From an uncultured Chloroflexia bacterium (lineage in GTDB: Bacteria > Chloroflexota > Anaerolineae > Anaerolineales > Villigracilaceae): a stretch of 64,000 nt of DNA. The position numbers and the translations under genes are program-made. The stretch covers positions 3,924-67,923 of the forward strand of contig CAVUZS010000012.1 in NCBI GenBank assembly GCA_963746015.1, read 5' to 3'. How positions within the stretch are numbered: position 1 is the first letter of the stretch; the number at the start of each line of letters is the position of its first letter. Positions 41,895 through 57,231 of this stretch are shown here, piece by piece. The notes under the pieces are model-generated. The model had not been told where the DNA came from and made no database searches. It worked only from the letters and a program-made list of their open reading frames with translations.

Positions 41895-42189
41895 GCGACC
41901 TCCTTATCTGAAGCAAGAAACTCTCCAACAATGATGGATGTTATCGATTTGTAGTTGGTAAAGATATTACTTTGCTGGTACAGCCGCAACCTTTCTCCAA
42001 TAATTCATCAAAGTTCGCTTTTTGGCTGCCTCTGATAACCTTTCTGATATACAAGCATATCTCGTACCATACTGAACCTGAGCGTTTCACATATAGCAGG
42101 AAGGTTGTATTGAAGTAGTTTCGGATTTCAGTTCCACTCTTCTTCCAGCCAATGGAAAAATACTGGAAAGGTTAGTCAAAAAGTGACGG

Positions 42190-42945
42190 TCACAACGTGG
42201 CATCCAGGCATCTCTTTGCAAGTACAAAGGCGACTTCGCTACGATATTCGGCTGAGGCCCATTCATCGGCGGCTTCCGAGCAGGCGTTGCGAGCAGCTTC
42301 CTGCAGGCCACCGGACTCGTTCCCATCCAAAGCCAGGGTGGGAGCCGGCCCCCACCCACCGAGCGCCAGGCGTGTCCGCCCGGAGGGCCATTGCGCCAGC
42401 GCGGCGCAGACAATCGGCTTGTCGGCCGGGGTGCGGGCAACGGTCTCGAAGGCGACTTTGACATTCAGGGGAATTTCCACCTTGATGATGAGCTTGCCCG
42501 GCTGGGCACCGCCAGCCCCGAGGCGTAAAGGCAAATAATTTCCCAATGTGATTTTCTCATTGCCGGAAGCAAAAGTAACTTTGGCATCCAAGGCAAGCAT
42601 TAGCGTGCCAAAAGGGGAACGCCCGTCACACGTTACCAGCGTCCCTGCCACGGTCCCCATGGTACGCAAGTTGAGGGGCGTTTCCAGCATGATGGCTGCT
42701 TTCAGCGCTTTGACAACGTATGAGGATTCGAGCAGAGTCTGTAAGGTGGCGATCGCACCGATTTCGAGATTGTTCCCGATTTTACGGAGCTTGTCCAAGC
42801 CGAGGGCTTGCAGATCCACAACGGAGAAGGATTCACCGCTGTATTGCGTGAGTACCGTTCCGCCGCCGAGTGGACGCGTATCCGCACGCGCAAGCAGTTG
42901 CAGGGCCTCTTCCAGAGTCTGGGGACGGTAATATTGAGTAATCAT
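42190..42945 (-). CDS. FAD-binding (CoxM/XdhB-like) medium subunit of a molybdopterin dehydrogenase
   Basis: 251 aa. YYRPQTLEEALQLLA...PLGGGT matches the FAD_binding_5 pattern, with a CO-dehydrogenase flavoprotein C-terminal part. Confidence 0.82.
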   Translation of the reverse strand: MITQYYRPQTLEEALQLLARADTRPLGGGTVLTQYSGESFSVVDLQALGLDKLRKIGNNLEIGAIATLQTLLESSYVVKALKAAIMLETPLNLRTMGTVAGTLVTCDGRSPFGTLMLALDAKVTFASGNEKITLGNYLPLRLGAGGAQPGKLIIKVEIPLNVKVAFETVARTPADKPIVCAALAQWPSGRTRLALGGWGPAPTLALDGNESGGLQEAARNACSEAADEWASAEYRSEVAFVLAKRCLDATL

Positions 42946-43123
42946 AGGAATTCTCCCGGAAACGACGATGTCTTTATTATACAGCCTCCAGAGTCAACAT
43001 GGGGATTGTCTGACAATTTGGCAACCCTGATTGCATTATAATGCCTCCGACTTCTAGCAGACTATTGGAGAACCCAATGGTTGACTGTTTTTTCACCGCG
43101 AAGAAGCTAAATAGGAGACCAGC

Positions 43124-43939
43124 ATGAAAGTCGCTTTTCAAGGGGAACCGGGTGCTTTTTCCGAAGAGGCAAGCAGCGGTTATTTTGATACGCCGGAAAC
43201 CGTACCTTGTGAGACATTCGAAGCGGTTTTCTCGGCGGTGACCTCCGGGCAATGCGATTTTGGACTGATACCAATCGAGAATTCCCTGGCGGGAAGCATC
43301 CACCAGAACTATGACCTGCTCCTGCAAAACAACTTATATATCGTGGGCGAATATTTCCTGCGTGTCAGGCATTGCCTGATCGGCTTCCCGGGTGTGACCA
43401 AACCGGAGATAAGACAGGTGATCAGCCATCCCCAGGCACTCGGTCAATGCGCCGGTTACCTACGCGGCATGGGTGTAAAGACCGAGCCTGTCTACGATAC
43501 TGCCGGGAGCGTAAAAATGCTCAAGGCTTCCGGCGAGTATACAACTGCGGCGATCGCCTCCCGCAAGGCGGCGGAAATCTACGGGATGCAAATCTTGCAG
43601 GAAGGAATCGAGGACAACCCGGAAAACTATACACGTTTCCTGGCGATTGCAGCCTCGCCGGTGACGCCACCTGGCGAGGCGAAGACATCCCTCGTGTTTA
43701 TTTTGAAAAACCAGCCGGGCGCTTTGTTCAAGGCGTTGAGCGTATTCGCATTGCGCGAGATCGACCTGACCAAAATCGAGAGCCGTCCGCTGGCGGGGAA
43801 GCCCTGGGAGTACCTGTTCTATATCGACTTCATCGGCGGCGTGCATGAAGAGCGGGTCAAGAAAGCCCTCGACCACCTTGGGGAATATGCCTTGATGCTG
43901 CGGGTGTTTGGCTCGTACCTGCGCGCCAATCGCGCGTAG
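43124..43939 (+). CDS. pheA: prephenate dehydratase (PDT plus ACT domain)
   Basis: KVAFQGEPGAFSEEA..., TRFL, and ACT-domain TKIESRPL. Confidence 0.9.
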   Translation: MKVAFQGEPGAFSEEASSGYFDTPETVPCETFEAVFSAVTSGQCDFGLIPIENSLAGSIHQNYDLLLQNNLYIVGEYFLRVRHCLIGFPGVTKPEIRQVISHPQALGQCAGYLRGMGVKTEPVYDTAGSVKMLKASGEYTTAAIASRKAAEIYGMQILQEGIEDNPENYTRFLAIAASPVTPPGEAKTSLVFILKNQPGALFKALSVFALREIDLTKIESRPLAGKPWEYLFYIDFIGGVHEERVKKALDHLGEYALMLRVFGSYLRANRA

Positions 43940-43982
43940 CGCCCCGCGATAATTCAACGTCTAGACAATGATCCAAAAAACC

Positions 43983-44010
43983 TTGACTTAATTCCAGTTG
44001 TGCATATAAT
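43983..44010 (+). promoter_or_regulatory. near-consensus sigma70 promoter of the ilv leader
   Basis: TTGACT (43983-43988), a 16-nt spacer, then TATAAT (44005-44010). Confidence 0.6.
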
Positions 44011-44031
44011 TTGGCGAAATATCCAAAGGCT

Positions 44032-44133
44032 ATGAACATTATTCTGTCATCCCTTCTGCTGGTCGTTCTTATTGCGGTCCTTATTATTAAGGACCTAAAC
44101 GTGGTTGGGATGGCCGAGGTGAAAGTCGAGTAG
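44032..44133 (+). CDS. candidate Ile/Leu/Val-rich leader peptide (33 aa) of the ilv-leu operon
   Basis: My own translation: MNIILSSLLLVVLIAVLIIKDLNVVGMAEVKVE. 19 of 33 residues are I, L or V. It sits between the promoter and the terminator hairpin upstream of ilvD. The SD is weak (AAAGG, 2 nt from the ATG). Confidence 0.5.
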   Translation: MNIILSSLLLVVLIAVLIIKDLNVVGMAEVKVE

Positions 44134-44156
44134 ACACACCTGATCGTAGCAAATAG

Positions 44157-44184
44157 AAGCCGCCCAACCACTGGGCGGCTTTTT
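44157..44184 (+). terminator. intrinsic terminator/attenuator upstream of ilvD
   Basis: Stem AAGCCGCCCA (44157-44166) / TGGGCGGCTT (44172-44181) with loop ACCAC and a T5 run at 44180-44184. GTGGTTGGG (44101-44109, leader codons 24-26) is exactly complementary to CCCAACCAC (44163-44171), which would form an antiterminator. Confidence 0.65.
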
Positions 44185-44224
44185 CGTTAAGGTACCAAAA
44201 CCATCTGTGAGAAAGAGAGAGATC

Positions 44225-45893
44225 ATGCGCTCCGATGCCATAAAAAAAGGATACGAGAAAGCCCCCCACCGGGCGCTGTTACGCGCCAGCGGTGTTGCCG
44301 AGGCCGACATGGGTAAACCCTTTGTAGCGATTGTCAACTCTTATGTAGACATCATTCCGGGGCATGTCCATTTGCAGGAATTTGGAAAGATCGTGAAAGA
44401 GGCCGTGCGCGCCGCTGGGGCCGTCCCGTTCGAATTCAACACCATCGGAGTGGACGACGGCATTGCGATGGGGCACTCCGGCATGAAATTCTCCCTGCCT
44501 TCACGCGAATTGATCGCAGACTGCGTGGAAACGATGCTGCAGGCGCACCAATTCGATGGCATGGTGTGCATGCCTAATTGCGACAAAATTGTGCCGGGTA
44601 TGTTGAATGCTGCAATGCGTGTCAACATCCCGGCAATTTTTATTTCCGGCGGGCCGATGGCGGCCGGGCGCACGCCGGATGGGGAGGTCATTGACCTGAT
44701 CTCGGTATTCGAGGGAGTGGGCGCTTACTCGGCGGGAAAAATCGATGAAGAGCGCCTGAACGTGCTCGAGCAGTACGCCTGTCCATCCTGCGGATCATGT
44801 TCAGGGATGTTCACGGCCAACAGCATGAATTGTTTGATGGAAGTCATTGGGCTGGCATTGCCGTACAACGGTACGGCTCTGGCAAAGACCGAAGAACGCG
44901 AGAATCTGGCCAGGCGGGCGGCGGCACAAATCAAGTCATTGATCGAACGCAACCTCAAACCGCGCGACATCGTCACCGCTGAGGCGATAGATGATGCCTT
45001 TGCATTGGATATGGCAATGGGCGGTTCCACCAATACGGTCTTGCACACGCTGGCCCTGGCGCACGAAGCGGATGTGGACTACCCGCTCAGTCGCATCAAT
45101 TCCGTCGCGGAGAGGGTTCCGCATATTTGCAAAGTATCCCCGGCCGGGAAGTGGCACATGGAAGATGTGCATCGGGCCGGAGGCATCCCGGCTATTTTGA
45201 ACGAGGTGCAGCGCGGGCACCGGCATGCTGCATCTCGACCGGATGACGGTCAGCGGTGTGACACTGGGCGAGTCCATTAAGGGAATGGAGATCAAGGACG
45301 AGGATGTGATCCGCCGTCATGACAATGCCCATTCGAAGCGCGGCGGGCTGGCCATTCTATTCGGCAACCTGGCCCCGAAAGGCGCCGCTGTCAAGGTTGG
45401 CGGAGTCAGCGAACCGATGATGAAATTCGCCGGCCCGGCGGTGATCTTCGAGTCGGAAGAGGATTCGATGAAAGGTATTCTGGCAGGTGAGGTCAAAGCC
45501 GGGGATGTGGTGGTTGTCCGCTATGAAGGGCCAAAAGGTGGGCCGGGAATGCAGGAAATGCTCAGCCCCACCAGCGCCATTATGGGGATGGGATTAGGCG
45601 ATAAGGTGGCGCTCATTACCGATGGGCGGTTTAGCGGTGGGACGCGCGGTGCCTGCATCGGGCACGTTTCTCCGGAGGCGGCCGCCCGGGGACCGATTGC
45701 GGCGCTTCGGGCTGGAGATGTCATTGAAATTGACCTGGAGGCTCGCACATTGAATGTCAGGTTGAACCAATCTGAAATCCAAGAACGGCTGGCTGCCCTC
45801 CCGCCGTTCGTGTCCAAAATTCAAAGCAAATGGCTGCGGCGTTATGCCCATTTCGTAACATCTGCTGATACTGGTGCCGTATTGACTTCGTAG
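44225..45893 (+). CDS. ilvD: dihydroxy-acid dehydratase (one frameshift near 45215)
   Basis: [19 protein letters not shown]..., [12 protein letters not shown]. ORFs 44207..45280 and 45225..45893 fuse if one G of GGG 45215-45217 is dropped, giving ...[18 protein letters not shown].... Confidence 0.93.
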
Positions 45894-45918
45894 AGGTACT
45901 GCAAAAGGAGAAGAGTGT

Positions 45919-47628
45919 ATGAAACGTACTGGAGCGCAAATTATTTGGGAATGTCTTGTCAACGAAGGCGTGAAAACGGTCTTCGGTTATCCCGGTGGGG
46001 CGATCATGCCCGCATATGATGCCTTGCTGGAATACCCGATCCATCACGTCCTGGTCCGCCATGAACAAGGTGCTGCCCACGCTGCGGATGGTTACGCTCG
46101 GGCATCTGGGGGTGTGGGGGTGGCAGTGGCCACCTCGGGGCCTGGCGCAACCAACCTGGTGACCGGGATCGCTACAGCGATGATGGATTCGTCCCCCATC
46201 GTCTGTATCACGGGGCAAGTGGCAAGTAAGCTGATCGGCTATGATGCTTTCCAGGAAACCGATATCACGGGCATAACCTTGCCGATCACGAAGCATAACT
46301 ACTTGGTTACGGATGTCAATGATCTCACAGAGACGATCCGCGAGGCGTTTTATATTGCACGCACCGGCCGTCCAGGCCCGGTGCTGATAGATATAGCCAA
46401 AGATGTACAACAGGCCTCGGTTGATTGGGAGTATGACGACAGCCCCATCCGGCTGCCTGGCTACCGTCCGGATAAACGACCTTTGCCGAAAGATATGCAG
46501 AAAGCTGCCGAAATGATCCACGCCTCAAAGCGGCCGGTCATCCTGGCAGGACGCGGCGTATTGTTGAGCGGAGCGATGTGGGAATTGCGTGAATTTGCCG
46601 AGAAGACGCGCACGCCGGTTGCGATGACGCTGCTGGGAATCGGCGGCTTCCCCGCCAGTCATCCGCTCAATCTCGGCATGATGGGTATGCACGGGGAGGC
46701 CTGGGTGAACCAGGCCATCCAGCAGGCAGACCTGTTATTGGCATTTGGGATGCGCTTCGACGACCGGGTGACCGGCAACCTCAAGACCTATGCACCCGGC
46801 GCCAAGAAGATTCACATTGAAGTTGATGCATCTGAAATAAACAAAAATGTCCCTGTAGACCTGGCCTTGATCGGTGATTTGCGGGAAACGTTAGGCCAGT
46901 TGTTGCCCCATGTCGAGGCCTGCGATCATGGTGACTGGATCGAGAGCATCGATGAGATGAAGGGTAACAGCGCGATGCTGGATATTCAGAATCTACCCGA
47001 TAACGGCCATTTATATGCTGCACATGTGATCAACGACTTATGGCTGTACACCAAAGGGGAGGCATTGGTTATCTCTGACGTAGGTCAAAACCAGATGTGG
47101 GCGGCACAATATTATAAGCATGACAAGCCCAGCACCTATATTACATCGGGCGGGGCGGGAACCATGGGGTTTGCGCTCCCGGCAGCCATAGGAGCCAAGT
47201 TCGCCCGGCCGGATGCGGATGTGTGGGTAATTTGTGGTGACGGCGGGTTCCAGATGACACAGGCAGAATTATCTACCGCCGTCCAGGAGGGTATCAAGAT
47301 CAATATTGCCATCATTGATAATGGCTACCTGGGCATGGTGCGCCAGTGGCAGGAATTTTTCTATGACCGCCGGTACTCTGCCACCCCGATGCGCAATCCC
47401 GATTTCGTCAAAATCGCCGAGGCGCATGGGCTGACCGGGTTGCGCGTTACCAAGCGTTCGGAAGTCGAGGCAGCGGTGAGCCAGGCGGAAGCGACGGACG
47501 GTACGGTTGTAATCGATTTCCGCGTGGAAAAAGAAGACTCGGTCTATCCGATGGTGCCCACCGGCGCCGACCTGCATAACATGATCCGTCGACCAGCGCC
47601 CAATGTTATTGTAGAAACAAATATGTGA
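45919..47628 (+). CDS. ilvB: acetolactate synthase large subunit
   Basis: 569 aa. TPP motif ICGDGGFQM...NNGYLGMVRQWQ. Confidence 0.95.
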   Translation: MKRTGAQIIWECLVNEGVKTVFGYPGGAIMPAYDALLEYPIHHVLVRHEQGAAHAADGYARASGGVGVAVATSGPGATNLVTGIATAMMDSSPIVCITGQVASKLIGYDAFQETDITGITLPITKHNYLVTDVNDLTETIREAFYIARTGRPGPVLIDIAKDVQQASVDWEYDDSPIRLPGYRPDKRPLPKDMQKAAEMIHASKRPVILAGRGVLLSGAMWELREFAEKTRTPVAMTLLGIGGFPASHPLNLGMMGMHGEAWVNQAIQQADLLLAFGMRFDDRVTGNLKTYAPGAKKIHIEVDASEINKNVPVDLALIGDLRETLGQLLPHVEACDHGDWIESIDEMKGNSAMLDIQNLPDNGHLYAAHVINDLWLYTKGEALVISDVGQNQMWAAQYYKHDKPSTYITSGGAGTMGFALPAAIGAKFARPDADVWVICGDGGFQMTQAELSTAVQEGIKINIAIIDNGYLGMVRQWQEFFYDRRYSATPMRNPDFVKIAEAHGLTGLRVTKRSEVEAAVSQAEATDGTVVIDFRVEKEDSVYPMVPTGADLHNMIRRPAPNVIVETNM

Positions 47629-47639
47629 GTAGAGGCGAA

Positions 47640-48185
47640 ATGGAACATATTTTAGTTGTGCTTGTAGAGGATAAACCGGGTGTTTTAAACCGGGTGGCAT
47701 CCCTATTCCGCCGAAGGGCTTTCAACATTGAATCTCTTACTGTTGGGCATACCGAACAACCCGGCATTTCCCGGATGACGATTGTCATCGATGGCGACCA
47801 GACAAACGTCGAGCGCGTAACCGCCAACCTGTACAAGTTGGTCAATGTCATTCAAGTGGCCGACCTGGCCGGAATGCCGGCCGTGAGTCGTGACCTGGCC
47901 TTGATGAAGGTCAGCGTGAGTTCTGTCAACCGCACTGAAGTGATGCAGCTCGTTGAGGTGTTCCGCTCGCGGATTGTGGATGTGGCCAACGATTTGCTCG
48001 TCGTTGAAATCACCGGCGACGAGGACAAGATCAACAGTTTCGTGGAGGTGCTGCGTCCCTTTGGGATAATGGAGATGGTGCGTACGGGTGTGGTGGCGAT
48101 GGCGCGTGGCGTTGGCCCGGCCTTGCCTGCCTTCAACGGGAATGGCAATGGCTCGCATGTTCAGGCCGAATTAATCGCAAGATAA
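47640..48185 (+). CDS. ilvN: acetolactate synthase small (regulatory) subunit
   Basis: ACT domain HILVVLVEDKPGVLNRVASLFRRRAFNIESLTVG. I prefer the ATG at 47640; the track ORF starts at GTG 47625. Confidence 0.92.
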   Translation: MEHILVVLVEDKPGVLNRVASLFRRRAFNIESLTVGHTEQPGISRMTIVIDGDQTNVERVTANLYKLVNVIQVADLAGMPAVSRDLALMKVSVSSVNRTEVMQLVEVFRSRIVDVANDLLVVEITGDEDKINSFVEVLRPFGIMEMVRTGVVAMARGVGPALPAFNGNGNGSHVQAELIAR

Positions 48186-48236
48186 GAAGAAGCGTGGCTC
48201 TTTTGCACGAAAAAACATTCATTCAAGGAGTATTAA

Positions 48237-49292
48237 ATGGCTGAGATCGATTTCGGTGGCGTCGTTGAAGACGTGGTTATGCGCGATGAGTTTCCTCTCC
48301 ATAAAGCCCAGCAGGTTTTAAAGGATGAAGTCGTCGCAGTGCTTGGATATGGCGTCCAGGGACCCGCACAATCAATGAATATGCGTGACAACGGCGTCAA
48401 TGTCATTGTGGGACAGGCTCCCGAGCACCAGAGTTATTGGGATAAGGCTGTCAAGGATGGCTGGGTGCCAGGCAAAACGCTTTTTCCCATTGAAGAGGCT
48501 GCACAGCGCGGCACAATCATCCAATACCTGGTCTCGGACGCAGCCCAGATGATGTTGTGGCCCAAAGTGAAGACGAACTTGAAGAAAGGTGATGCATTGT
48601 ATTTCTCGCATGGCTTTTCCATCGTTTACAAAGAACAGACCGGCGTCGTTCCTCCGGGGGACGTTGACGTGATCCTGGTCGCGCCCAAGGGATCAGGTAC
48701 GAGTGTACGGCGGAATTTCCTGGCAGGCAGCGGCATCAATGCCAGTTTCGCGGTCCACCAGGATTACACGGGGCATGCCACGGAACGCACCCTGGCCCTG
48801 GGTATTGCGATCGGGGCAGGGTATCTATTCCCGACCACCTTCCAAAACGAAGTGTACAGTGACCTTACGGGGGAGCGGGGTGTCCTGATCGGCGCGTTAT
48901 CGGGCGTCATGGAGGCCCAGTACAACGTATTGCGCAAGAATGGACATACCCCCAGCGAAGCCTTCAATGAGACGGTCGAGGAATTGACCCAGAGCCTGAT
49001 CCGGCTGGTCGGGGAAAATGGGATGGATTTCATGTATGCCAACTGTTCCACCACGGCCCAGCGCGGTGCACTGGATTGGCATCCGCGCTTCCGCGCGGCG
49101 GTCGAACCTGTTTTTGAGGAACTTTATGACAGTGTAGTAGCCGGAAAAGAGACCGCAGTTGTTCTCAAGGCGAACAGCGCTCCGGATTACCAAGTGAAGC
49201 TGGATGCTGAGTTGAAGACAATGCGCGAGTCTGAAATGTGGCAAGCGGGTGCCGCAGTCCGTTCTCTGCGGCCGGAAAATTGGAAGAGGTAA
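48237..49292 (+). CDS. ilvC: ketol-acid reductoisomerase (class I)
   Basis: 351 aa. GYGVQGPAQSMNMRDNG Rossmann motif and KARI-like sequence throughout. Confidence 0.95.
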   Translation: MAEIDFGGVVEDVVMRDEFPLHKAQQVLKDEVVAVLGYGVQGPAQSMNMRDNGVNVIVGQAPEHQSYWDKAVKDGWVPGKTLFPIEEAAQRGTIIQYLVSDAAQMMLWPKVKTNLKKGDALYFSHGFSIVYKEQTGVVPPGDVDVILVAPKGSGTSVRRNFLAGSGINASFAVHQDYTGHATERTLALGIAIGAGYLFPTTFQNEVYSDLTGERGVLIGALSGVMEAQYNVLRKNGHTPSEAFNETVEELTQSLIRLVGENGMDFMYANCSTTAQRGALDWHPRFRAAVEPVFEELYDSVVAGKETAVVLKANSAPDYQVKLDAELKTMRESEMWQAGAAVRSLRPENWKR

Positions 49293-49315
49293 ATTTTTTG
49301 GTAACAGCTTGAGCC

Positions 49316-49409
49316 AACCTTGCGAAGGTTCTATTTCTGGCGAAATTATGGATAAAGCCAGGATTTTCGCCCGAAAGTAATGCTTAGATGCAGCTAAACC
49401 TTCGCAAGG
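49316..49409 (+). other. structured intergenic RNA element between ilvC and leuA
   Basis: A 13-bp long-range helix pairs CCTTGCGAAGGTT (49318-49330) with AACCTTCGCAAGG (49397-49409). It encloses a hairpin GGCGAAA (49339-49345) / TTTCGCC (49365-49371). Each arm of the long helix is itself palindromic, so alternative folds are possible. Confidence 0.4.
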
Positions 49410-49444
49410 GTGAACAGTTACTTTCTTTTTGAAGGAGAGGATCG

Positions 49445-51139
49445 ATGGTTACGACCAGCGTTGCGAAGTATGCCCAACTAAAGCCGTTCGATTACCCGGA
49501 GCGACAATGGCCTTCCCAATCCATCACCGAAAGCCCGATCTGGGTCTCGGTGGACTTGCGTGACGGTAACCAGGCCTTGCCCAACCCACTTAATCCGGGG
49601 CAAAAGCTTGCATATTTCCAATTGCTGTGCCAGATCGGCTTTAAAAACATAGAAGTTGCCTTTCCTTCCGCCAGCCAGGACGATTTCGACTTCACCCGCC
49701 GGCTGATCGACGATGATTTGATCCCAAATGATGTTTTCATCATGGCCCTCACCCAGTGCCGCGACCATTTGATCGAGAGGACATTTGAATCCATTAATGG
49801 CATTCGTCAGGCCATTTTCCATGCTTACCTGGCGACCTCCGATCTGCATATTCGTCAGGTTTTCGACCTGACGCCAGAGCAGGCCGTTCAGGTGGCCGTC
49901 CAATCCGTGGATCAGATTCGCAAGGGGGCGGAGAGTATGCCCGACAGCGACATCCGGTTGGAGTTCTCGCCCGAGGAATTCACCGATACGGATCCGGATT
50001 TCTCATTGGAAGTCTGTGAAGCTGTTTATGCCACCTGGGGTCGGGCCACGCCGGAGAAGCCGCTCATCCTGAACCTGCCTGCCACGGTCGAGCGACGCCC
50101 GCCCAACCAATACGCCGACATGGTCGAGTTGTTCTGCAAGCGGTTTTCTCATCCAGAAAGCGTCATTTTTTCCTTGCATGCCCACAACGACCAGGGCATG
50201 GCCGTAGCGGCCACCGAGCTGGCCTTGCTGGCGGGGGGGCAACGTGTCGAGGGGACGCTTTTTGGCCACGGTGAGCGCACCGGTAACGTTGACCTGGTTG
50301 TGTTGGCCAACAATTTCCATGCACGCGGTATTCACACTGGCCTGGATTTCTCAGATTTGCCCCGGATCGCCGGAACGGTCGAACACCTGACCGGCATGCC
50401 AATCCCATACCGGGCGCCTTATGCTGGCGAGTATGTATTTACGGCTTTTTCTGGTTCTCATCAGGACGCCATCCGCAAGGGTATGAACCGGTTGGGGGAA
50501 GCTTCGGATAAATTTGGCGTAGGCTGGAAGGTACCCTACCTGCACATAGATCCGACCGACCTGGGTCGAAAGTATGAAAGCCTGATCCGCATCAATTCCC
50601 AGTCCGGTAAAGGTGGAGTGGTATGGGTGCTCGAGCAGGAGTTCGGTTTTCAGCCGCCGCGTGCCATGCACCCAGAGATTGGAACAGCCATCCAGGAATA
50701 TGCCGACGAGGTCAGGCGGGAAGTCAGTTCGAGTGAAGTCAAAATGATTTTCGACAAGACTTTCATCAATCCGCCCGGCCCTTATCAGTTGAAAGGGTAC
50801 TGGCCGCGACCGGATAGGCAAGCTCCCGACCATATCCATGGTGAACTGCACATGAACATCAATGGGGTGGAGCAAAGGGTTATAGCGAGCGGCAACGGGC
50901 CCATTTCGGCATTTGTCAACGGGCTGGTAAAGCTTGGCATCTATGGCTACAGCGTGGATGATTACCATGAACAAGCCCTCGAGAAAGGCGCAGATGCAAC
51001 CGCCGTGGCTTACGTTCCACTCAAATCTGGCGAAAATGGGACCCTGTTTGGCGTTGGAGAAGGTACCAATATCGACCAGGCCGCCGTGCGTGCCATTGTG
51101 GCTGGCCTGAACCGGTGGGCGTCCGTCAATAAGAAGTAA
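49445..51139 (+). CDS. leuA: 2-isopropylmalate synthase (long form)
   Basis: 564 aa. VDLRDGNQA, HAHNDQGMAVA, and a C-terminal LeuA dimerisation/regulatory domain. Confidence 0.93.
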   Translation: MVTTSVAKYAQLKPFDYPERQWPSQSITESPIWVSVDLRDGNQALPNPLNPGQKLAYFQLLCQIGFKNIEVAFPSASQDDFDFTRRLIDDDLIPNDVFIMALTQCRDHLIERTFESINGIRQAIFHAYLATSDLHIRQVFDLTPEQAVQVAVQSVDQIRKGAESMPDSDIRLEFSPEEFTDTDPDFSLEVCEAVYATWGRATPEKPLILNLPATVERRPPNQYADMVELFCKRFSHPESVIFSLHAHNDQGMAVAATELALLAGGQRVEGTLFGHGERTGNVDLVVLANNFHARGIHTGLDFSDLPRIAGTVEHLTGMPIPYRAPYAGEYVFTAFSGSHQDAIRKGMNRLGEASDKFGVGWKVPYLHIDPTDLGRKYESLIRINSQSGKGGVVWVLEQEFGFQPPRAMHPEIGTAIQEYADEVRREVSSSEVKMIFDKTFINPPGPYQLKGYWPRPDRQAPDHIHGELHMNINGVEQRVIASGNGPISAFVNGLVKLGIYGYSVDDYHEQALEKGADATAVAYVPLKSGENGTLFGVGEGTNIDQAAVRAIVAGLNRWASVNKK

Positions 51140-51204
51140 CTTTCAAGCTTATCAACCTGGCGAAAGACCAGCGAGCGTATTTTTATTCAGAGAGGAGCAA
51201 CCGC

Positions 51205-51372
51205 ATGTGTATACCTAATTTGCCTTATGAGGATATGGAAAACGTTTTGCCTGAATGGCACGAGCCGTTCCCGGAACCACAAACCATTCCGTCCGGCTGG
51301 GACCTAAGCGGAGTCCTGGCAGCATCTACGCCTGCCGTGATTGAGGCAGCGGACGCAACCACCAAGGGGTAA
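51205..51372 (+). CDS. small hypothetical ORF (55 aa) between leuA and leuC
   Basis: Below the track's length cutoff. GAGAGGAG SD 7 nt upstream of ATG 51205. Translation: [55 protein letters not shown]. No known motif. Confidence 0.3.
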
Positions 51373-51395
51373 CCCTGCTTTGCAATGGAAGTTCT

Positions 51396-52796
51396 ATGCC
51401 ACAAACTCTATTCGAGAAAATATGGGATTCGCATGTCGTGGCCCAGCAGCCGGACTCTCCGGCCGTGCTTTACATCGACCTGCACCTGGTGCACGAAGTC
51501 ACTTCGCCGCAAGCATTTACCGGCCTGCGCGAGCGCGGGCTGAAAGTTCGCCGGCCCGACAGAACTGTCGCCACGCTGGATCATTCCATCCCAACGCATG
51601 ACCCCTCCCTGTCTATAACGGATCCCTTGGCGGCCGCGCAGATCAAGCAGATGGAGGCCAATGCCAGCGAGTTTGGCCTGCGCCTGTATGGCATGAACAG
51701 TCCACGGCGCGGCATCGTCCACGTGATTGGACCGGAGCTGGGATTCACCCAACCGGGCATGACCATCGTCTGCGGAGACAGCCATACCGCCACGCATGGC
51801 GCCTTTGGGGCGCTGGCCTTTGGCATTGGCACATCCGAGGTTGAGCATGTCCTTGCCACGCAGTGCCTGCTACAGCGCAAACCCAAAACCTGCGAAGTAC
51901 GTGTGGATGGAATCCTGCCGAGAGGTGTCTCGGCCAAAGATATCATCCTGGCGTTGATTGCCAAAATCGGTATAGGTGGTGGGACGGAACATGTCTTTGA
52001 ATACACCGGCTCTGCCATCCGCGCCCTGAGTATGGAAGAGCGCATGACGGTCTGTAACATGTCCATCGAAGGCGGAGCGCGCGCCGGGATGATCGCCCCG
52101 GACGAAACCACATTCGAATACATGAACGGGCGTGAATATGCCCCGAAGGGCGCAGATTGGGACAAGGCTGTTGCCAGGTGGAAACAGTTGCCCACTGACG
52201 ACGGCCAGTACGACAAATCCATTTCGCTGGATGCAAGCGCGCTCGAACCGATGATTACCTATGGGACAAATCCGGGCCAGGGCATGAAGATCACTGAGCG
52301 TGTCCCTGACCCAGCGATGGTCACCGATATGGCACAGAAAGCCGCACTGAACAAGGCCCTTGCTTATATGGGTCTTCAGCCTGGCCAGTTGCTGCTCGGC
52401 AAAAACGTGGATGTGGTCTTTATTGGTAGTTGTACCAATGGGCGCATTACTGACCTGCGGCAGGCAGCGCTGCTGTTGAAAGGCCGGAAAGTATCGACCA
52501 CAACGCGTGTTTTGGTGGTTCCCGGCTCACAGGATGTCAAGAAACAGGCCGAAGTGGAAGGGCTGGATGCGGTTTTCAAAGAAGCCGGCGCTGAATGGCG
52601 CGAGGCGGGCTGCTCGATGTGTATCGCGATGAACGGTGACCAACTCACGCCCGGACAGTATGCTGTCAGCACCAGCAACCGCAATTTCGAAGGCCGCCAG
52701 GGGAAAGGCGGCCGGACGTTCCTCACCAGCCCGCTGACAGCCGCCGCGGCGGCTGTAACCGGACAGATCACAGATGTCCGCACCTTACTGCCCTGA
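51396..52796 (+). CDS. leuC: 3-isopropylmalate dehydratase large subunit
   Basis: 466 aa. [21 protein letters not shown] and the aconitase-family Cys ligands GSCTNGR and GCSMCIA. Confidence 0.95.
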
Positions 52797-52802
52797 GGAA
52801 TT

Positions 52803-53402
52803 ATGGCTAAATTCACTACACTTACCTCCCATATCATGCCGTTGCCGGTCAGTGATATCGATACGGATCAGATCATCCCCGCCCGGTTCCTGAAAGCGAC
52901 CGACAAAAAAGGCATGGGTGAGGCCCTGTTTGCCGATTGGCGGTATGACCCGGATGGCTCTCCCAAACCGGATTTTGTGCTCAACCAGGATACGTACCAG
53001 GGGGCCAAAATCCTGTTAGCTGGGGATAATTTCGGGTGCGGATCGAGCCGGGAACATGCCCCCTGGGCGCTGACGGGTTACGGGTTCCGAGCCGTTATCA
53101 GCACCTCGTTCGCCGATATTTTCCGTAATAACGCTCTCAAGAACGGTCTTCTACCCATTATTGTGGATGCGGATACGCACCGTTTGCTGTTCGATCTGGT
53201 GGAAGAAGTTCCCACAACCGAGATGACAGTTGACCTGGCTTCCCAGACGCTTTCCTTCTCGGGAAGATCGGTTGTTTTCCCGATCGATGCCTTTTCCAAA
53301 ACCTGCCTGCTCAACGGCGTGGATGAGCTTGGATATATCCTGGGGTTCGCGGAGAAGATCGCAGGGTATGAGGACATGCGCCGGAAGAGAGAATCAGCGT
53401 GA
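52803..53402 (+). CDS. leuD: 3-isopropylmalate dehydratase small subunit
   Basis: GDNFGCGSSREHAPWAL. Confidence 0.95.
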   Translation: MAKFTTLTSHIMPLPVSDIDTDQIIPARFLKATDKKGMGEALFADWRYDPDGSPKPDFVLNQDTYQGAKILLAGDNFGCGSSREHAPWALTGYGFRAVISTSFADIFRNNALKNGLLPIIVDADTHRLLFDLVEEVPTTEMTVDLASQTLSFSGRSVVFPIDAFSKTCLLNGVDELGYILGFAEKIAGYEDMRRKRESA

Positions 53403-54955
53403 TACAAATCTACGATACCACTTTGCGTGACGGAACCCAACGGGAAGGGATCTCTCTCTCCGGCAGTGACAAGATTCGCATTGCCCGGAAATTGGACGAA
53501 CTGGGAGTGGCATTCATCGAGGGCGGGTGGCCCGGCTCCAATCCGAAAGATGCCGAATTCTTCGAGCGGGCGCGTGGCATCCGGTGGGGACATGCGCTTA
53601 TTGCGGCATTTGGCTCAACCTGCCGGGCGAAAGGCGGTCCTGATGACGATTCCAACATCAAGGCATTGCTGGATTCGCATGCCCCTGTCTGTACTGTTGT
53701 CGGCAAGAGCTGGACTTTGCATGTCACCGAAGTGCTTCGGACCACTTTTGACGATAACCTGCGCATTATTGAGCAAAGTGTCGCGTATCTCAAGGCGCAA
53801 GGCCGGCGTGTCATTTACGATGCCGAGCATTTCTTTGATGGTTATAAGGCAGACTCAAGTTATGCGCTCGAAACCTTGAAAGCGGCAGTGCGCGGTGGAG
53901 CCGAGACGCTGGTCCTATGTGATACCAATGGCGGAGCCATGCCGTGGGAGCTGTCTGGGGTAATCCGCACTGTCAATGCAACATTGGATCGCCCGATTGG
54001 GATCCATGTTCACAATGACAGTGAATGTGCCGTGGCGAATACAATCATGGCCATCCGCGAAGGCGCTATCCAGGCCCAGGGAACAATCAATGGATATGGA
54101 GAACGCTGCGGGAACGCCAATTTATGCGCCATCATTCCGGACCTTGAGCTTAAGATGGGATTACATTGCCTGCCGGAAGATCACCTGGCTATGTTGTTCG
54201 ATGTGGCGCAATTCGTGGCCGAAGTGGCCAACCTTGCGCCGGATGATCACATGGCATTTGTGGGAAAGTCGGCCTTTGCCCACAAGGGCGGTATCCACGT
54301 TGCTGCCATGCGGCGGACAGCTCTTTCCTACCAACACGTTGACCCTGGGCTGGTCGGGAACCAGATGCGAGTGGTTGTCAGCGAACTTTCGGGACGCGGC
54401 AACCTTTTAAGCAAAGCCGAAGAATATGGCCTGGGAACGTTCGACGGAGAAGAAGTGGCAGGTGTACTCAACGAGATCAAATCCCTTGAATCACAGGGTT
54501 TCTCGTTCGAAGCCGCAGAGGCTTCGGTGGCGCTGATGCTCAAACGTCATCAATCAGGATATGTCCCGCCGTTTGAGATGATCGATTTCTCGGCAATCGT
54601 GGAGCACCGCCAGGGACGGGGCATGTTTGCAGAAGCTACTGTCAAGGTGCGCGTTAAAGGCGAAGTGTTCCACACGGCGGCCGAGGGAGACGGTCCTGTC
54701 AATGCTCTCGATACGGCCTTACGGAAGGCTCTTATGGTTCATTACCCGGAGATTAATACTTTTCATCTGGACGATTACAAAGTCCGCATCCTTAATGGCG
54801 ACGCAGGTACTGCCGCATCCACGCGCGTGTTGATCGACACTCAAAGCGATGGCAAACGCTGGAGCACAGTTGGGGCCAGCACCAATATCATCGAAGCCAG
54901 TTGGCGGGCATTGGCGGATTCCGTGGAATACGGATTGATGCTCTTACATCAATAA
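53399..54955 (+). CDS. cimA: citramalate synthase (LeuA-paralogue, CimA type)
   Basis: 518 aa. IYDTTLRDGTQREGISLSGSDKIRIARKLDELGVAFIEGGWPGSNPKDAEFF is the CimA-type N-terminus. A second HMGL-like enzyme lies beside a bona fide leuA. Confidence 0.8.
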   Translation: MIQIYDTTLRDGTQREGISLSGSDKIRIARKLDELGVAFIEGGWPGSNPKDAEFFERARGIRWGHALIAAFGSTCRAKGGPDDDSNIKALLDSHAPVCTVVGKSWTLHVTEVLRTTFDDNLRIIEQSVAYLKAQGRRVIYDAEHFFDGYKADSSYALETLKAAVRGGAETLVLCDTNGGAMPWELSGVIRTVNATLDRPIGIHVHNDSECAVANTIMAIREGAIQAQGTINGYGERCGNANLCAIIPDLELKMGLHCLPEDHLAMLFDVAQFVAEVANLAPDDHMAFVGKSAFAHKGGIHVAAMRRTALSYQHVDPGLVGNQMRVVVSELSGRGNLLSKAEEYGLGTFDGEEVAGVLNEIKSLESQGFSFEAAEASVALMLKRHQSGYVPPFEMIDFSAIVEHRQGRGMFAEATVKVRVKGEVFHTAAEGDGPVNALDTALRKALMVHYPEINTFHLDDYKVRILNGDAGTAASTRVLIDTQSDGKRWSTVGASTNIIEASWRALADSVEYGLMLLHQ

Positions 54956-54974
54956 CAAATAACATGGAGATTTT

Positions 54975-56045
54975 ATGAAAGCCGATATTCTTTTATTACC
55001 CGGCGATGGCATCGGCCCGGAAGTGGTTGCTGAAGCCGTGCGCGTGCTGGAGGTTATTGCAGAAAAAGGCGGACATTCCTTCTCGTTTACTGAACGCCTG
55101 ATTGGCGGTTGTTCCATCGACAAATTTGGCACTGCGTTTACCGACGAAACCCTGGCGGATTGCAAAGCTTCGGAGGCGGTTTTACTCGGGGCGGTTGGAG
55201 GGCCCAAGTGGGATGATCCACAGGCCAAGGTTCGTCCGGAACAAGGCCTGCTGGCCTTGCGCAAGGGATTGGGTGTTTTTGCAAACCTGCGCCCGGTCAA
55301 GGTGCATCCTGCGTTGATCGGCTCCTCGCCGCTGAAACCAGAAAAACTCAAAGGTGTGGATATTCTCGTCGTACGCGAGTTGACTGGCGGTTTATATTTC
55401 GGTTTTCCAAAAGGTCGCGATGTCAAGGATGGTCGCGAACGTGCGGTGGATACACTCGAGTATTATGATTACGAGATCAGGCGGGTGGTGGAATTGGCCT
55501 TCAAGCTTGCCAAAGGCCGCAAGAAAAAAGTCACCTCGGTGGACAAGGCCAACATACTCGAGTCGTCCCGCCTGTGGAGACAGATCACTACAAAGGTGGG
55601 GGCTCAAAACCCGGAAGTAACTCTCGAGCATGTCCTTGTGGACACCGCCTCGATGCGTATCATCACCGGGCCGGCTTATATGGACGTGATCGTTACGGAG
55701 AATATGTTTGGTGACATCCTCACCGATGAAGCCTCTGTGTTGGCCGGATCGATGGGAATGCTGCCATCCGCAAGCCTGGGAGAAGCGAGCCTCGGGCTGT
55801 ACGAACCCATTCATGGGTCGGCGCCGGATATTGCCGGGAAGGGGATTGCCAATCCGGTCGGCACGATCCTGTCGGCAGCCATGGCATTGCGCCATTCGCT
55901 AAACCTGGAGTCTGAGGCCGCTTCCATCGAACAGGCAGTGGAAGATGCCATCTCTTCCGGCGCTCGCACAGCCGACCTGGGAGGAATTCTCAGGACCCGC
56001 CAGATGGCTGATGAAATCATAAAACGGATCCAGAGCCAGCCTTAA
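54975..56045 (+). CDS. leuB: 3-isopropylmalate dehydrogenase
   Basis: 356 aa. [11 protein letters not shown] and [12 protein letters not shown]. Confidence 0.95.
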
Positions 56046-56110
56046 ATCAATACTTTCGACATCTTGCCAGACTCAAAATACAAACTTTAATCAAGAAGGA
56101 AGGAAACACT

Positions 56111-57055
56111 ATGAGCGCGAAATACATCTGGATGAATGGTGAAATTGTGGAATTCGAGAAAGCAACGGTCCACTTCCTCACCCCGGCCTTGCACTATGGC
56201 GCGGCAGCCTTTGAAGGCATTCGGGCTTACGCTACGGACAGCGGCCCGGCTATTTTCCGCTTAAAAGACCATGCCGAACGCCTGGCCAACTCGGCGCGTG
56301 TGTTCGGTTTCCGTGATCTGCCGTGGACGGTGGAACAGATTGCCGAGGCGATCAAGGAAACTGTGCGGGTGAACGGCCTTACATCGTGTTATATTCGTCC
56401 TTTAATCTATTTTGATGGTCCGGCCGGCAGCCTGAACCTGGATGCGGGGGGACCTGCCCTCGGGATTGCTGCCTGGGAATGGAATAATTATCTTGGTGAA
56501 GAAGCACTGGCAAAGGGGATCCGCGCCAATGTCTCTTCCTTCACCCGCCATCAGCCAAACGTGATGATGACCAAAGCGAAAATTGCCGGGAATTATGCCA
56601 ACAGCATCCTGGCGAAGACCGAATCGAGCCGCCTGGGCTTCGATGAAGCCATTATGCTCAACCCGCAGGGTTATGTGGCAGAGTGCACCGGTGAGAACCT
56701 TTTCCTTGTGCGCAACAACAAGATTTTCAGTCCTCAATTGGCCGATATCCTCGAAGGTATCACACGTGATACCGTCATTACAATTGCCAGGGACCTGGGT
56801 TATGAGGTCGTCGAAACACTCGTCTCGCGCGACCAGCTCTACATCGCGGACGAAGTTTTTGTCAGTGGTACGGCTGCTGAATGCATCGGATTACGTGAAA
56901 TTGATTTCCATACGATTGGTGATGGTAGGACCGGCCCTGTGACACGCACCATTCAAAAGGTCTATCAGGATGCCACGCGTGGCAAGTTACCTCAGTACCG
57001 GGATTGGCTTGATTATGTCAATGTGGGCATTGACATCCCACAACTCGTCGAGTAG
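56111..57055 (+). CDS. ilvE: branched-chain amino acid aminotransferase (class IV)
   Basis: 314 aa. AAFEGIRAY..., EC(T)GENLF, GITRD. Confidence 0.93.
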   Translation: MSAKYIWMNGEIVEFEKATVHFLTPALHYGAAAFEGIRAYATDSGPAIFRLKDHAERLANSARVFGFRDLPWTVEQIAEAIKETVRVNGLTSCYIRPLIYFDGPAGSLNLDAGGPALGIAAWEWNNYLGEEALAKGIRANVSSFTRHQPNVMMTKAKIAGNYANSILAKTESSRLGFDEAIMLNPQGYVAECTGENLFLVRNNKIFSPQLADILEGITRDTVITIARDLGYEVVETLVSRDQLYIADEVFVSGTAAECIGLREIDFHTIGDGRTGPVTRTIQKVYQDATRGKLPQYRDWLDYVNVGIDIPQLVE

Positions 57056-57067
57056 AATGCTTTGCTA

Positions 57068-57154
57068 ATGAATACAAACGTCTACACAACCCGCTTTTTG
57101 GCGTATTACTTTTATTACGGCCTCCACAGACTGGTTGCCGTTGGCAGCGCTTAG
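57068..57154 (+). CDS. candidate Tyr/Phe-rich leader peptide (28 aa) ahead of the aromatic genes
   Basis: My own translation: MNTNVYTTRFLAYYFYYGLHRLVAVGSA. Six of the eight residues 10-17 are aromatic (F-L-A-Y-Y-F-Y-Y). The ATG lies 13 nt after the ilvE stop. No clear SD. Confidence 0.4.
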   Translation: MNTNVYTTRFLAYYFYYGLHRLVAVGSA

Positions 57155-57183
57155 AAGCAGGTAGTTTCTCATCTGTTTATCCT

Positions 57184-57210
57184 AGGAGCGAGCCCGACGG
57201 GCTCGCTCCT
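57184..57210 (+). promoter_or_regulatory. strong GC-rich hairpin (possible attenuator) 22 nt upstream of aroH
   Basis: AGGAGCGAGCCC-GAC-GGGCTCGCTCCT forms a 12-bp stem. It is followed by TCTATATCT, which is only a weak U-tract. Confidence 0.45.
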
Positions 57211-57231
57211 TCTATATCTGGAGGAAGTATC

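Follow-up and report, generated by a model that had tools for sequence, protein, structure and literature searches.

Why does a short open reading frame (ORF) crowded with isoleucine, leucine and valine (ILV) codons, followed by a GC-rich hairpin, lie directly in front of ilvD, the dihydroxy-acid dehydratase gene, in a bacterium of the phylum Chloroflexota? The arrangement is found in a 64,000-nucleotide (nt) stretch of contig CAVUZS010000012.1 from the Anaerolineales (Chloroflexota); this whole stretch is called the window below, and all coordinates are window positions. A sequence-only reading of the window had proposed leader-peptide attenuation of the ilvL/ivbL/leuL type, and our analysis supports that proposal through a conserved ILV codon run, a conserved and covarying pairing, and the lack of any match to a T-box model in Rfam. 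The element is very probably a four-region, ribosome-mediated (leader-peptide) transcription attenuator of ilvD-ilvBNC-leuA-leuCD-cimA-leuB-ilvE. Region 1, a conserved inner hairpin and the clade-wide absence of a Shine-Dalgarno (SD) sequence are added here to the earlier description.

Mutually exclusive structures in the ilvD leader

The proposed switch is built from the following parts of the window:

44032-44133, + strand: leader ORF of 33 codons and TAG (ATG 44032, TAG 44131-44133), encoding the peptide MNIILSSLLLVVLIAVLIIKDLNVVGMAEVKVE
44038-44088, + strand: putative regulatory ILV codon run, codons 3-19
44101-44114, + strand: region 2, GTGGTTGGG-A-TGGC, able to pair with either region 1 or region 3
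44159-44171, + strand: region 3, GCCG-CCCAACCAC, comprising the terminator 5' arm and loop, antiterminator partner of region 2
44155-44184, + strand: intrinsic terminator (regions 3:4), a 12-base-pair (bp) hairpin at 44155-44183 (3' arm 44172-44183) with a T5 run at 44180-44184

The ORF has the composition originally ascribed to it, with 19 I, L or V residues among its 33 (I5+L7+V7) and I, L or V codons at 14 of the 17 positions from codon 3 to codon 19. The GC-rich hairpin and T5 run reported 40 nt upstream of ilvD are likewise present, as a stem of 12 bp with the core GCCGCCCA/TGGGCGGC whose end lies 40 nt before the ilvD ATG (44225). Conservation extends to the loop of the hairpin (AACCAC), an unusual feature in a plain terminator.

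The two elements are linked by complementarity. GTGGTTGGG (44101-44109), inside the ORF, is the exact complement of CCCAACCAC (44163-44171), and the 2:3 pairing is lengthened by TGGC:GCCG across one bulged A. Only 0.3% of 2000 ORF shuffles contained a stretch of 9 nt or more that was fully complementary to the 5' arm and loop of the terminator (P=0.003). The 2:3 duplex has a predicted energy of -23.4 kcal/mol versus -12.0±2.6 kcal/mol in shuffles, none of 500 being as low, and folding of the whole leader gave z = -5.3. These values bear out the complementarity and mutual exclusivity first noticed in the sequence: the window holds both a terminator and a 2:3 helix that excludes it, as classical attenuators do.

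Conservation and covariation in relatives

The comparative sample consisted of the sequences upstream of ilvD at the 80 best IlvD-matching loci, 79 of which were assessable (L004 was too short). Metagenome-assembled genomes of Chloroflexota account for 79 of the 80 loci, and the IlvD relatives, with a best match of 91% identity, place the window in the Anaerolineales. Conservation of the ILV codon run had been put forward as a test of the attenuator hypothesis, and the outcome was positive: at 78 of the 79 assessable loci, an ILV-rich ORF of 26-45 codons is followed by a GC-rich hairpin upstream of ilvD, with a T-run in most units. The sole exception, L069, is labelled Deltaproteobacteria and has no leader unit upstream of ilvD. 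Eight genomes (L016, L022, L024, L025, L047, L074, L077 and L079) carry tandem pairs of complete ORF-plus-terminator units. With the tandem copies and the window included, 86 units were available in total; the hairpins of L012 and L049 and the ORFs of L046, L048 and L065 were set right or excluded by hand. The commonest leader peptide is MNxxLFSLSLIVVVLAVLIIKDxFxVRMAxVRVK.

The companion test, conservation of the pairing, was also passed. At least 12 distinct sequence solutions of the 2:3 duplex were found, among them GGTTGGG/CCCAACC, GGTTAGG/CCTAACC, TGGGCAG/CTGCCCA, TTGGGCGGTT/AACCGCCCAA, GTTCGGGCG/CGCCCGAAC, GTTGGGAGG/CCTCCCAAC, GGGTTGGGGCGG/CCGTCCCAACCC and GGTTGAGA/GCTCAACC, and the peptide varies along with the solution (VGMA, VRMA, VWAV, LGRL, VRAN, VGRT, VGAV). 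The association was also seen free of any alignment: when the final 66 nt of each ORF were paired with the 5' arm and loop of the terminator from the same unit, the best cognate duplexes averaged -19.9 kcal/mol, compared with -12.4±3.4 kcal/mol for shuffled ORF segments and -15.1 kcal/mol for terminators of other sequence classes.

For the covariation counts, 84 units were aligned with MAFFT alone (A1); the alignment involved no structure fitting and was in this sense unbiased. For the antiterminator together with the inner hairpin described below (P1), 80.7% of cells were paired, versus 27-55% when the partner was slid. Both-side changes occurred in 16 of these 19 pairs and in 120 cells, against 48.7±5.4 cells in shuffles, with none of 500 shuffles reaching the observed count. 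The counts are conservative, because one region 3 register cannot fit the CCCAACC and CCCTAACC classes together. For the terminator, 92.9% of cells were paired and both-side changes were present in 9 of 12 pairs. A single column quartet, 57-117-229-253, links regions 1, 2, 3 and 4: 43 units have C-G-C-G there, 14 have U-G-C-G and 8 have U-A-U-A. For columns 117-229-253 taken by themselves, G-C-G was counted in 65 units and A-U-A in 13. As judged from these aligned sequences, the predicted antiterminator, terminator and inner hairpin all covary.

These data bear on the alternative of a chance resemblance, in which the promoter would be an ordinary one, the ORF spurious and the terminator a plain one (insulating the upstream gene pheA from ilvD, for example). 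In favour of this explanation, shuffled sequence contains terminator-like and promoter-like sites about as often, overall, as the region itself. Against it stand the low probabilities obtained within the window and the retention of the architecture, together with its covariation, across 86 units from 79 relatives. The comparative data effectively refute the chance explanation, which we credit with practically no probability.

Constraint on codons and on base pairs within one ORF

The two halves of the leader ORF are conserved in different ways. Across codons 8-19 of the run, column entropy in the 84 units is 1.48/0.58/1.36 bits at codon positions 1/2/3, whereas codons 20-33 give 1.20/1.24/1.25 bits and show no codon periodicity. 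The near-invariant columns of the run (T26, T29, T35, T38, T41, T47, T50 and T56 of the window ORF) are all second codon positions, and I, L and V interchange freely at almost every position; at codon 13, for instance, 33 units have L, 24 have V and 21 have I. In codons 20-33, by comparison, the conserved bases are the paired bases. This entropy pattern indicates that the run is constrained to "I, L or V codon" and the later segment to an RNA helix. Because only the second-position T is conserved while I, L and V interchange, we read the run as codons. The leader start codon is retained in 83 of 84 units, and the distance from the end of region 2 to the end of the ORF is near-constant, at 18 or 21 nt in most units, which puts region 2 5-6 codons before the stop. 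Together, the codon-position-specific conservation and the retained start codon provide indirect evidence that the leader is translated.

The same data speak to a caveat raised with the original proposal, namely that the product might be a small hydrophobic membrane peptide. In its fuller form, this alternative gives the mini-ORF a promoter and a terminator of its own, and either makes its position before ilvD incidental or assigns the peptide a second role besides regulation. The peptide does look like one transmembrane helix with charged residues (K/E-D ... R/K) after it, and the mean Kyte-Doolittle value of its core is 3.2. Gene callers sometimes annotate it as a 33-34-residue hypothetical protein, and the peptide of one relative is weakly similar to the small membrane protein MgtR (E=0.002, below the family cut-off). 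A search of public protein sets with the 40-residue, TTG-extended form of the ORF returned 11 homologous ORFs of 33-34 residues, all of them unnamed or called "hypothetical protein". The C-terminal half, however, varies as a protein (VGMA, VRMA, VWAV, VGRT) while tracking the terminator arm exactly; it is conserved as RNA rather than as protein. The Ser codons within the run are located in RNA-paired segments, and F, M, A and G are scarcer than in ordinary hydrophobic segments. The unit always lies upstream of ilvD, with a second tandem unit there in the eight genomes listed above, and a scan of the 40 nt between the terminator and ilvD gave no promoter-like site. A membrane peptide is thus disfavoured, and we judge it very improbable.

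Region 1 and an inner hairpin

Two further features lie within the leader ORF:

44046-44059, + strand: region 1, the putative anti-antiterminator 5' strand, GTCATCCC..CTGC, which forms the minimum-free-energy (MFE) helix with region 2 (44101-44114)
44076-44095, + strand: inner hairpin P1, GGTCCTTA-TTAT-TAAGGACC, spanning codons V16 L17 I18 I19 K20 D21

When each leader was folded up to region 2, region 2 paired with a segment inside the ILV run, in most relatives GTCGTCCTT with AGGATGGC. Covariation of this 1:2 helix is moderate, and some of it falls at column pair 57:117. P1 is enclosed by the 1:2 helix and was found in most units with differing sequences, such as GGTTCTCA/TGAGAACC, GGCTCTCA/TGAGAGCC, CGCCCTTA/..AAGGGCG and GCCTCCTTCTC/GAGAAGGAGGC; both-side changes were seen in 7 of its 8 pairs. 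The architecture would therefore be that of a classical four-region attenuator (1:2, 2:3, 3:4), with one more hairpin capping the 1:2 helix.

Promoter and leader start

Upstream of the ORF lie the elements from which expression of the leader would begin:

43983-43988, + strand: -35 hexamer TTGACT; closer relatives have CTTGAC-N17-TATAAT at the same position
44005-44010, + strand: -10 hexamer TATAAT, after a 16-nt spacer, conserved in closer relatives
44013-44031, + strand: predicted short 5' untranslated region (UTR), bearing the conserved GGCGAAAUA and no SD

The near-consensus promoter TTGACT-16-TATAAT is present as claimed. It agrees with the consensus at 11 of 12 positions, is the top promoter-like site within 42000-52000 and keeps its position in the closer relatives. 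Transcription would start at about 44013-44018. In relatives, the conserved promoter lies ~21-24 nt upstream of the leader ATG, which implies a 5' UTR of only ~15 nt. A conserved GGGCGAAAU opens the 5' UTR directly after the -10 box (44011-44031 in the window, with equivalents in L001-L046), and in several relatives this motif is able to fold into a short GGGC...GCCC stem that runs up to the ATG. In the full-leader MFE structure of the window, the leader start region GCTATGA (44029-44035) pairs over 7 bp with TCGTAGC (44144-44150), just upstream of the terminator.

The warning that the SD is weak was correct, as the window leader pairs with the anti-SD sequence at -3.0 kcal/mol, the level of random sequence. 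In tandem units, the second leader ORFs pair with the anti-SD somewhat better than the first (mean -3.8 versus -2.1 kcal/mol).

Proposed mechanism

We propose that the attenuator senses charged tRNA-Ile, -Leu and -Val jointly. Transcription would start at the near-consensus promoter, and a ribosome would translate the 33-codon leader with RNA polymerase ahead of it. Under Ile/Leu/Val scarcity, the ribosome would stall in the ILV run (44038-44088), masking region 1 and leaving region 2 free; once region 3 (44159-44171) had been transcribed, free region 2 would capture it, the terminator 5' arm would be sequestered, and polymerase would read through into the ilvD operon. When Ile, Leu and Val are plentiful, the ribosome would cross region 2 and proceed to the stop, 5 codons beyond region 2. 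The 1:2 helix would then re-form around P1 behind the ribosome, 3:4 would form, and transcription would terminate at the T-run (~44184). P1 may act as a nucleus for the 1:2 helix, as a pause hairpin, or as both.

Ribosome masking was modelled by moving a 30-nt footprint along the leader codon by codon. While the A site is at any of codons 1-19, which include all ILV codons of the run, region 2 is free, and a transcript that stops after region 3 forms the antiterminator with ~13 expected pairs. Once the A site is at codons 21-31, region 2 is covered and the antiterminator cannot form.

Several observations weigh against this mechanism. A ribosome at the stop codon, given the standard footprint, abuts region 2 instead of covering it, and the antiterminator is then possible in the model. 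The equilibrium structure of the full-length transcript always includes the terminator. A transcript cut off after region 3 already favours the antiterminator with no ribosome present. The 1:2 pairing is less conserved than the others, with 61-74% of aligned cells paired and a variable register, and the codons that region 1 occupies in the window are not those it occupies in most relatives. The higher ILV fraction of the leader core, 0.78 versus 0.60 in the most hydrophobic 16-residue windows of 542 background ORFs, counts for little, given a background of just 33 windows and the choice of the leader window for maximum ILV. Finally, the SD is missing across the clade, the 78 leaders averaging -2.1 kcal/mol in anti-SD pairing versus -2.6 kcal/mol for random 16-mers and -6.7 kcal/mol for ilvD starts. 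Leader initiation would consequently have to be SD-independent, and translation of the leader has to be argued from codon-periodic constraint by itself.

The antiterminated and 1:2 states are nearly isoenergetic, with a free-energy difference (ddG) of -3.1±2.9 kcal/mol across 85 units and -3.0 kcal/mol in the window. Because the equilibrium always gives the terminator, the outcome would have to be settled by kinetics, according to the partner that region 3 encounters first. A kinetic decision of this kind is also the rule in textbook attenuators.

The lack of an SD in the whole clade, a highly structured RNA (the z-score given above) and the conserved inner hairpin would also suit a switch that is real but set by a metabolite, guanosine tetraphosphate (ppGpp), a protein or tRNA binding the leader RNA, with the ORF as a by-product. 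Such a switch does not account for a run in which second-position T alone is conserved and I, L and V are interchangeable, a pattern pointing to codons rather than to a binding site, nor for the retained start codon and the near-constant distance between region 2 and the ORF end. The encoded amino acids are those made by the operon, and no T-box, ppGpp or other riboswitch model matches. We regard a switch of this type as quite improbable and retain ribosome-mediated attenuation as the explanation of the locus.

Relation to catalogued families and known attenuators

At gathering thresholds, Rfam gave no match in the whole window or in the loci of 14 relatives. Sub-threshold searches of the region (E up to 10) returned only matches with E of at least 0.13; the best, Phe_leader, scored 19.8 bits against a cut-off of 55 and was aligned over essentially just the terminator hairpin. 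For the T-box, there was no Rfam match in 43900-44300 either at the gathering threshold or at E up to 10, so that the initial remark that no T-box is visible here is borne out by searches of the window, the region and the 14 relatives' loci. In Pfam and NCBIfam, the window peptide and the peptides of three relatives were without a match at curated thresholds, and sub-threshold matches (E up to 10) were to unrelated membrane proteins. The sequence is not a member of any catalogued Rfam, Pfam or NCBIfam family; the proposed mechanism is of a known type.

Escherichia coli ilvL (the ilvGMEDA leader), ivbL and leuL are related attenuators, with leader families in Pfam and Rfam. The Anaerolineales element is like them in its short ORF with mixed Ile/Leu/Val codons, which would allow multivalent control, in its alternative 2:3 and 3:4 helices and a predicted 1:2 helix, in its intrinsic terminator directly before the first biosynthetic gene and in its sigma-70-type promoter. 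It differs from them in phylum and in lacking any sequence or covariance-model similarity, in having no SD and a 5' UTR of only ~15 nt, in the placement of region 2 within the ORF, 5-6 codons before the stop, and in the conserved inner hairpin formed from the last ILV codons. The Bacillus subtilis ilv-leu T-box, for its part, binds uncharged tRNA directly and has no leader ORF. The element described here shares with it the opposition of terminator and antiterminator, the (predicted) response to tRNA charging and the location upstream of an ilv-leu operon, and is set apart by its leader ORF and by the lack of a T-box model match.

There are further parallels in kind. Leader-peptide attenuators are described for ilvBNC of Actinobacteria, with a three-hairpin model in Corynebacterium glutamicum and further examples in Mycobacterium (PMC1262725, PMC10272879, PMC11857589). 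They too have a lineage-specific, non-homologous ILV peptide and terminator and antiterminator hairpins, and have been defined mainly by comparative genomics; the first gene is ilvB there and ilvD here, and sequence and phylum differ. The ilv-leu attenuator peptide of Staphylococcus aureus (PMC5794164) also acts on branched-chain amino acid synthesis genes, but is described as leucine-rich and as working together with CodY, whereas the run described here is mixed I/L/V. We found no Chloroflexi or Anaerolineae ilv leader in the literature, although an earlier prediction may be contained in the survey of Lopatovskaya et al. 2010 (PMID 20198868). Lineage-specific attenuators based on upstream ORFs (uORFs) are still emerging from comparative genomics, for example upstream of cysS and aroF (PMC8632094), and for this reason the present find is expected in kind.

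Gene context of the probable attenuator

The leader is flanked by the following genes:

43124-43939: pheA (prephenate dehydratase), the gene upstream of the leader
44225-45893, + strand: ilvD (dihydroxy-acid dehydratase), the first presumed regulated gene, ATG 44225, split by a 1-nt insertion
45919-57055, + strand: ilvB, ilvN, ilvC, leuA, leuC, leuD, cimA, leuB and ilvE, assigned by NCBIfam matches

From their common strand and close spacing, ilvD-ilvBNC-leuA-leuCD-cimA-leuB-ilvE would constitute one operon. Between them, the downstream genes encode the complete common Ile/Val pathway together with the Leu branch and the citramalate route to Ile. Because they make Ile, Val and Leu, a sensor of all three amino acids is biologically sensible at ilvD.

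The ilvD gene carries an extra base near 45218 (45215-45218), where the window reads GCGCGGGCACC and L001, L002 and L005 read GCGCG[C/G]G-ACC. The insertion divides the gene into two ORFs, 44225-45280 and 45225-45893, and reflects either a sequencing or assembly error or else a recent pseudogene.

The spacer between the leader terminator and ilvD is variable in some relatives. Long, near-perfect palindromic inserts resembling repetitive extragenic palindromic (REP) elements or miniature inverted-repeat transposable elements (MITEs) were observed there in L007 (3843-4000), L035 (3886-4000), L051 (3843-4000) and L059 (317-462), and one of them is common to L007 and L035. In L045 (3900-3998) and L066 (3806-3997), the same interval holds a small ORF of 32-63 residues with the C-termini ...DSMFDVYNG or ...EALWECYNN and a stop 3-4 nt before the ilvD start, possibly encoding a conserved small protein.

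A 28-codon uORF, MPPTSSRLLENPMVDCFFTAKKLNRRPA, at 43041-43127 overlaps the pheA start codon. It contains two Phe codons only, with a weak AT-rich hairpin and T-run at 43060-43092, and is probably not a leader.

A candidate aromatic leader and wider significance

A second candidate leader ORF lies at 57069-57154, between ilvE and an aromatic operon. Its product, MNTNVYTTRFLAYYFYYGLHRLVAVGSA, has a stretch of 8 codons containing 4 Tyr and 2 Phe, and the ORF is preceded by a TTGACA-17-TAGAAT site overlapping the ilvE stop (region 57031-57231). A GC-rich hairpin (57186-57212) follows it, directly upstream of aroH-DAHP synthase-tyrA-aroA-aroE-aroC (DAHP, 3-deoxy-D-arabino-heptulosonate 7-phosphate). 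A metagenome scan returned only 2 relatives, L081 and L082; both of them retain the RFFAYYFYYG ORF, the promoter-like site and the hairpin, with one compensatory change in the stem. No significant antiterminator was identified for this candidate.

With this second candidate in view, leader-peptide attenuation may be a general means of amino acid sensing in the Anaerolineales, employing SD-less leaders ~15 nt from the 5' end, sometimes in tandem, that would serially divide a supraoperon of more than 20 kb into pheA, the ILV leader, the ilv-leu genes, the Tyr/Phe-rich leader and aroH-DAHP synthase-tyrA-aroA-aroE-aroC. We offer this generalization tentatively, as possible and on balance somewhat doubtful.

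Mechanistically, the ilvD attenuator is unsurprising, as its logic is that of the textbook. Its interest lies in where and how that logic is realized. No described attenuator was found for Chloroflexota, an abundant and mostly uncultured phylum, and the 86 examples with three covarying helices provide it with a well-supported cis-regulatory RNA and leader-peptide family, in which classical attenuation would have been reached with unrelated sequence in another deep lineage. Annotation stands to gain as well, since gene calls at present either miss the small ORF or give it the name "hypothetical protein". The family would also offer a test case for SD-independent initiation feeding an attenuator. 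If the wider scheme of serial leaders were true, each block of the supraoperon would answer to its own amino acids.

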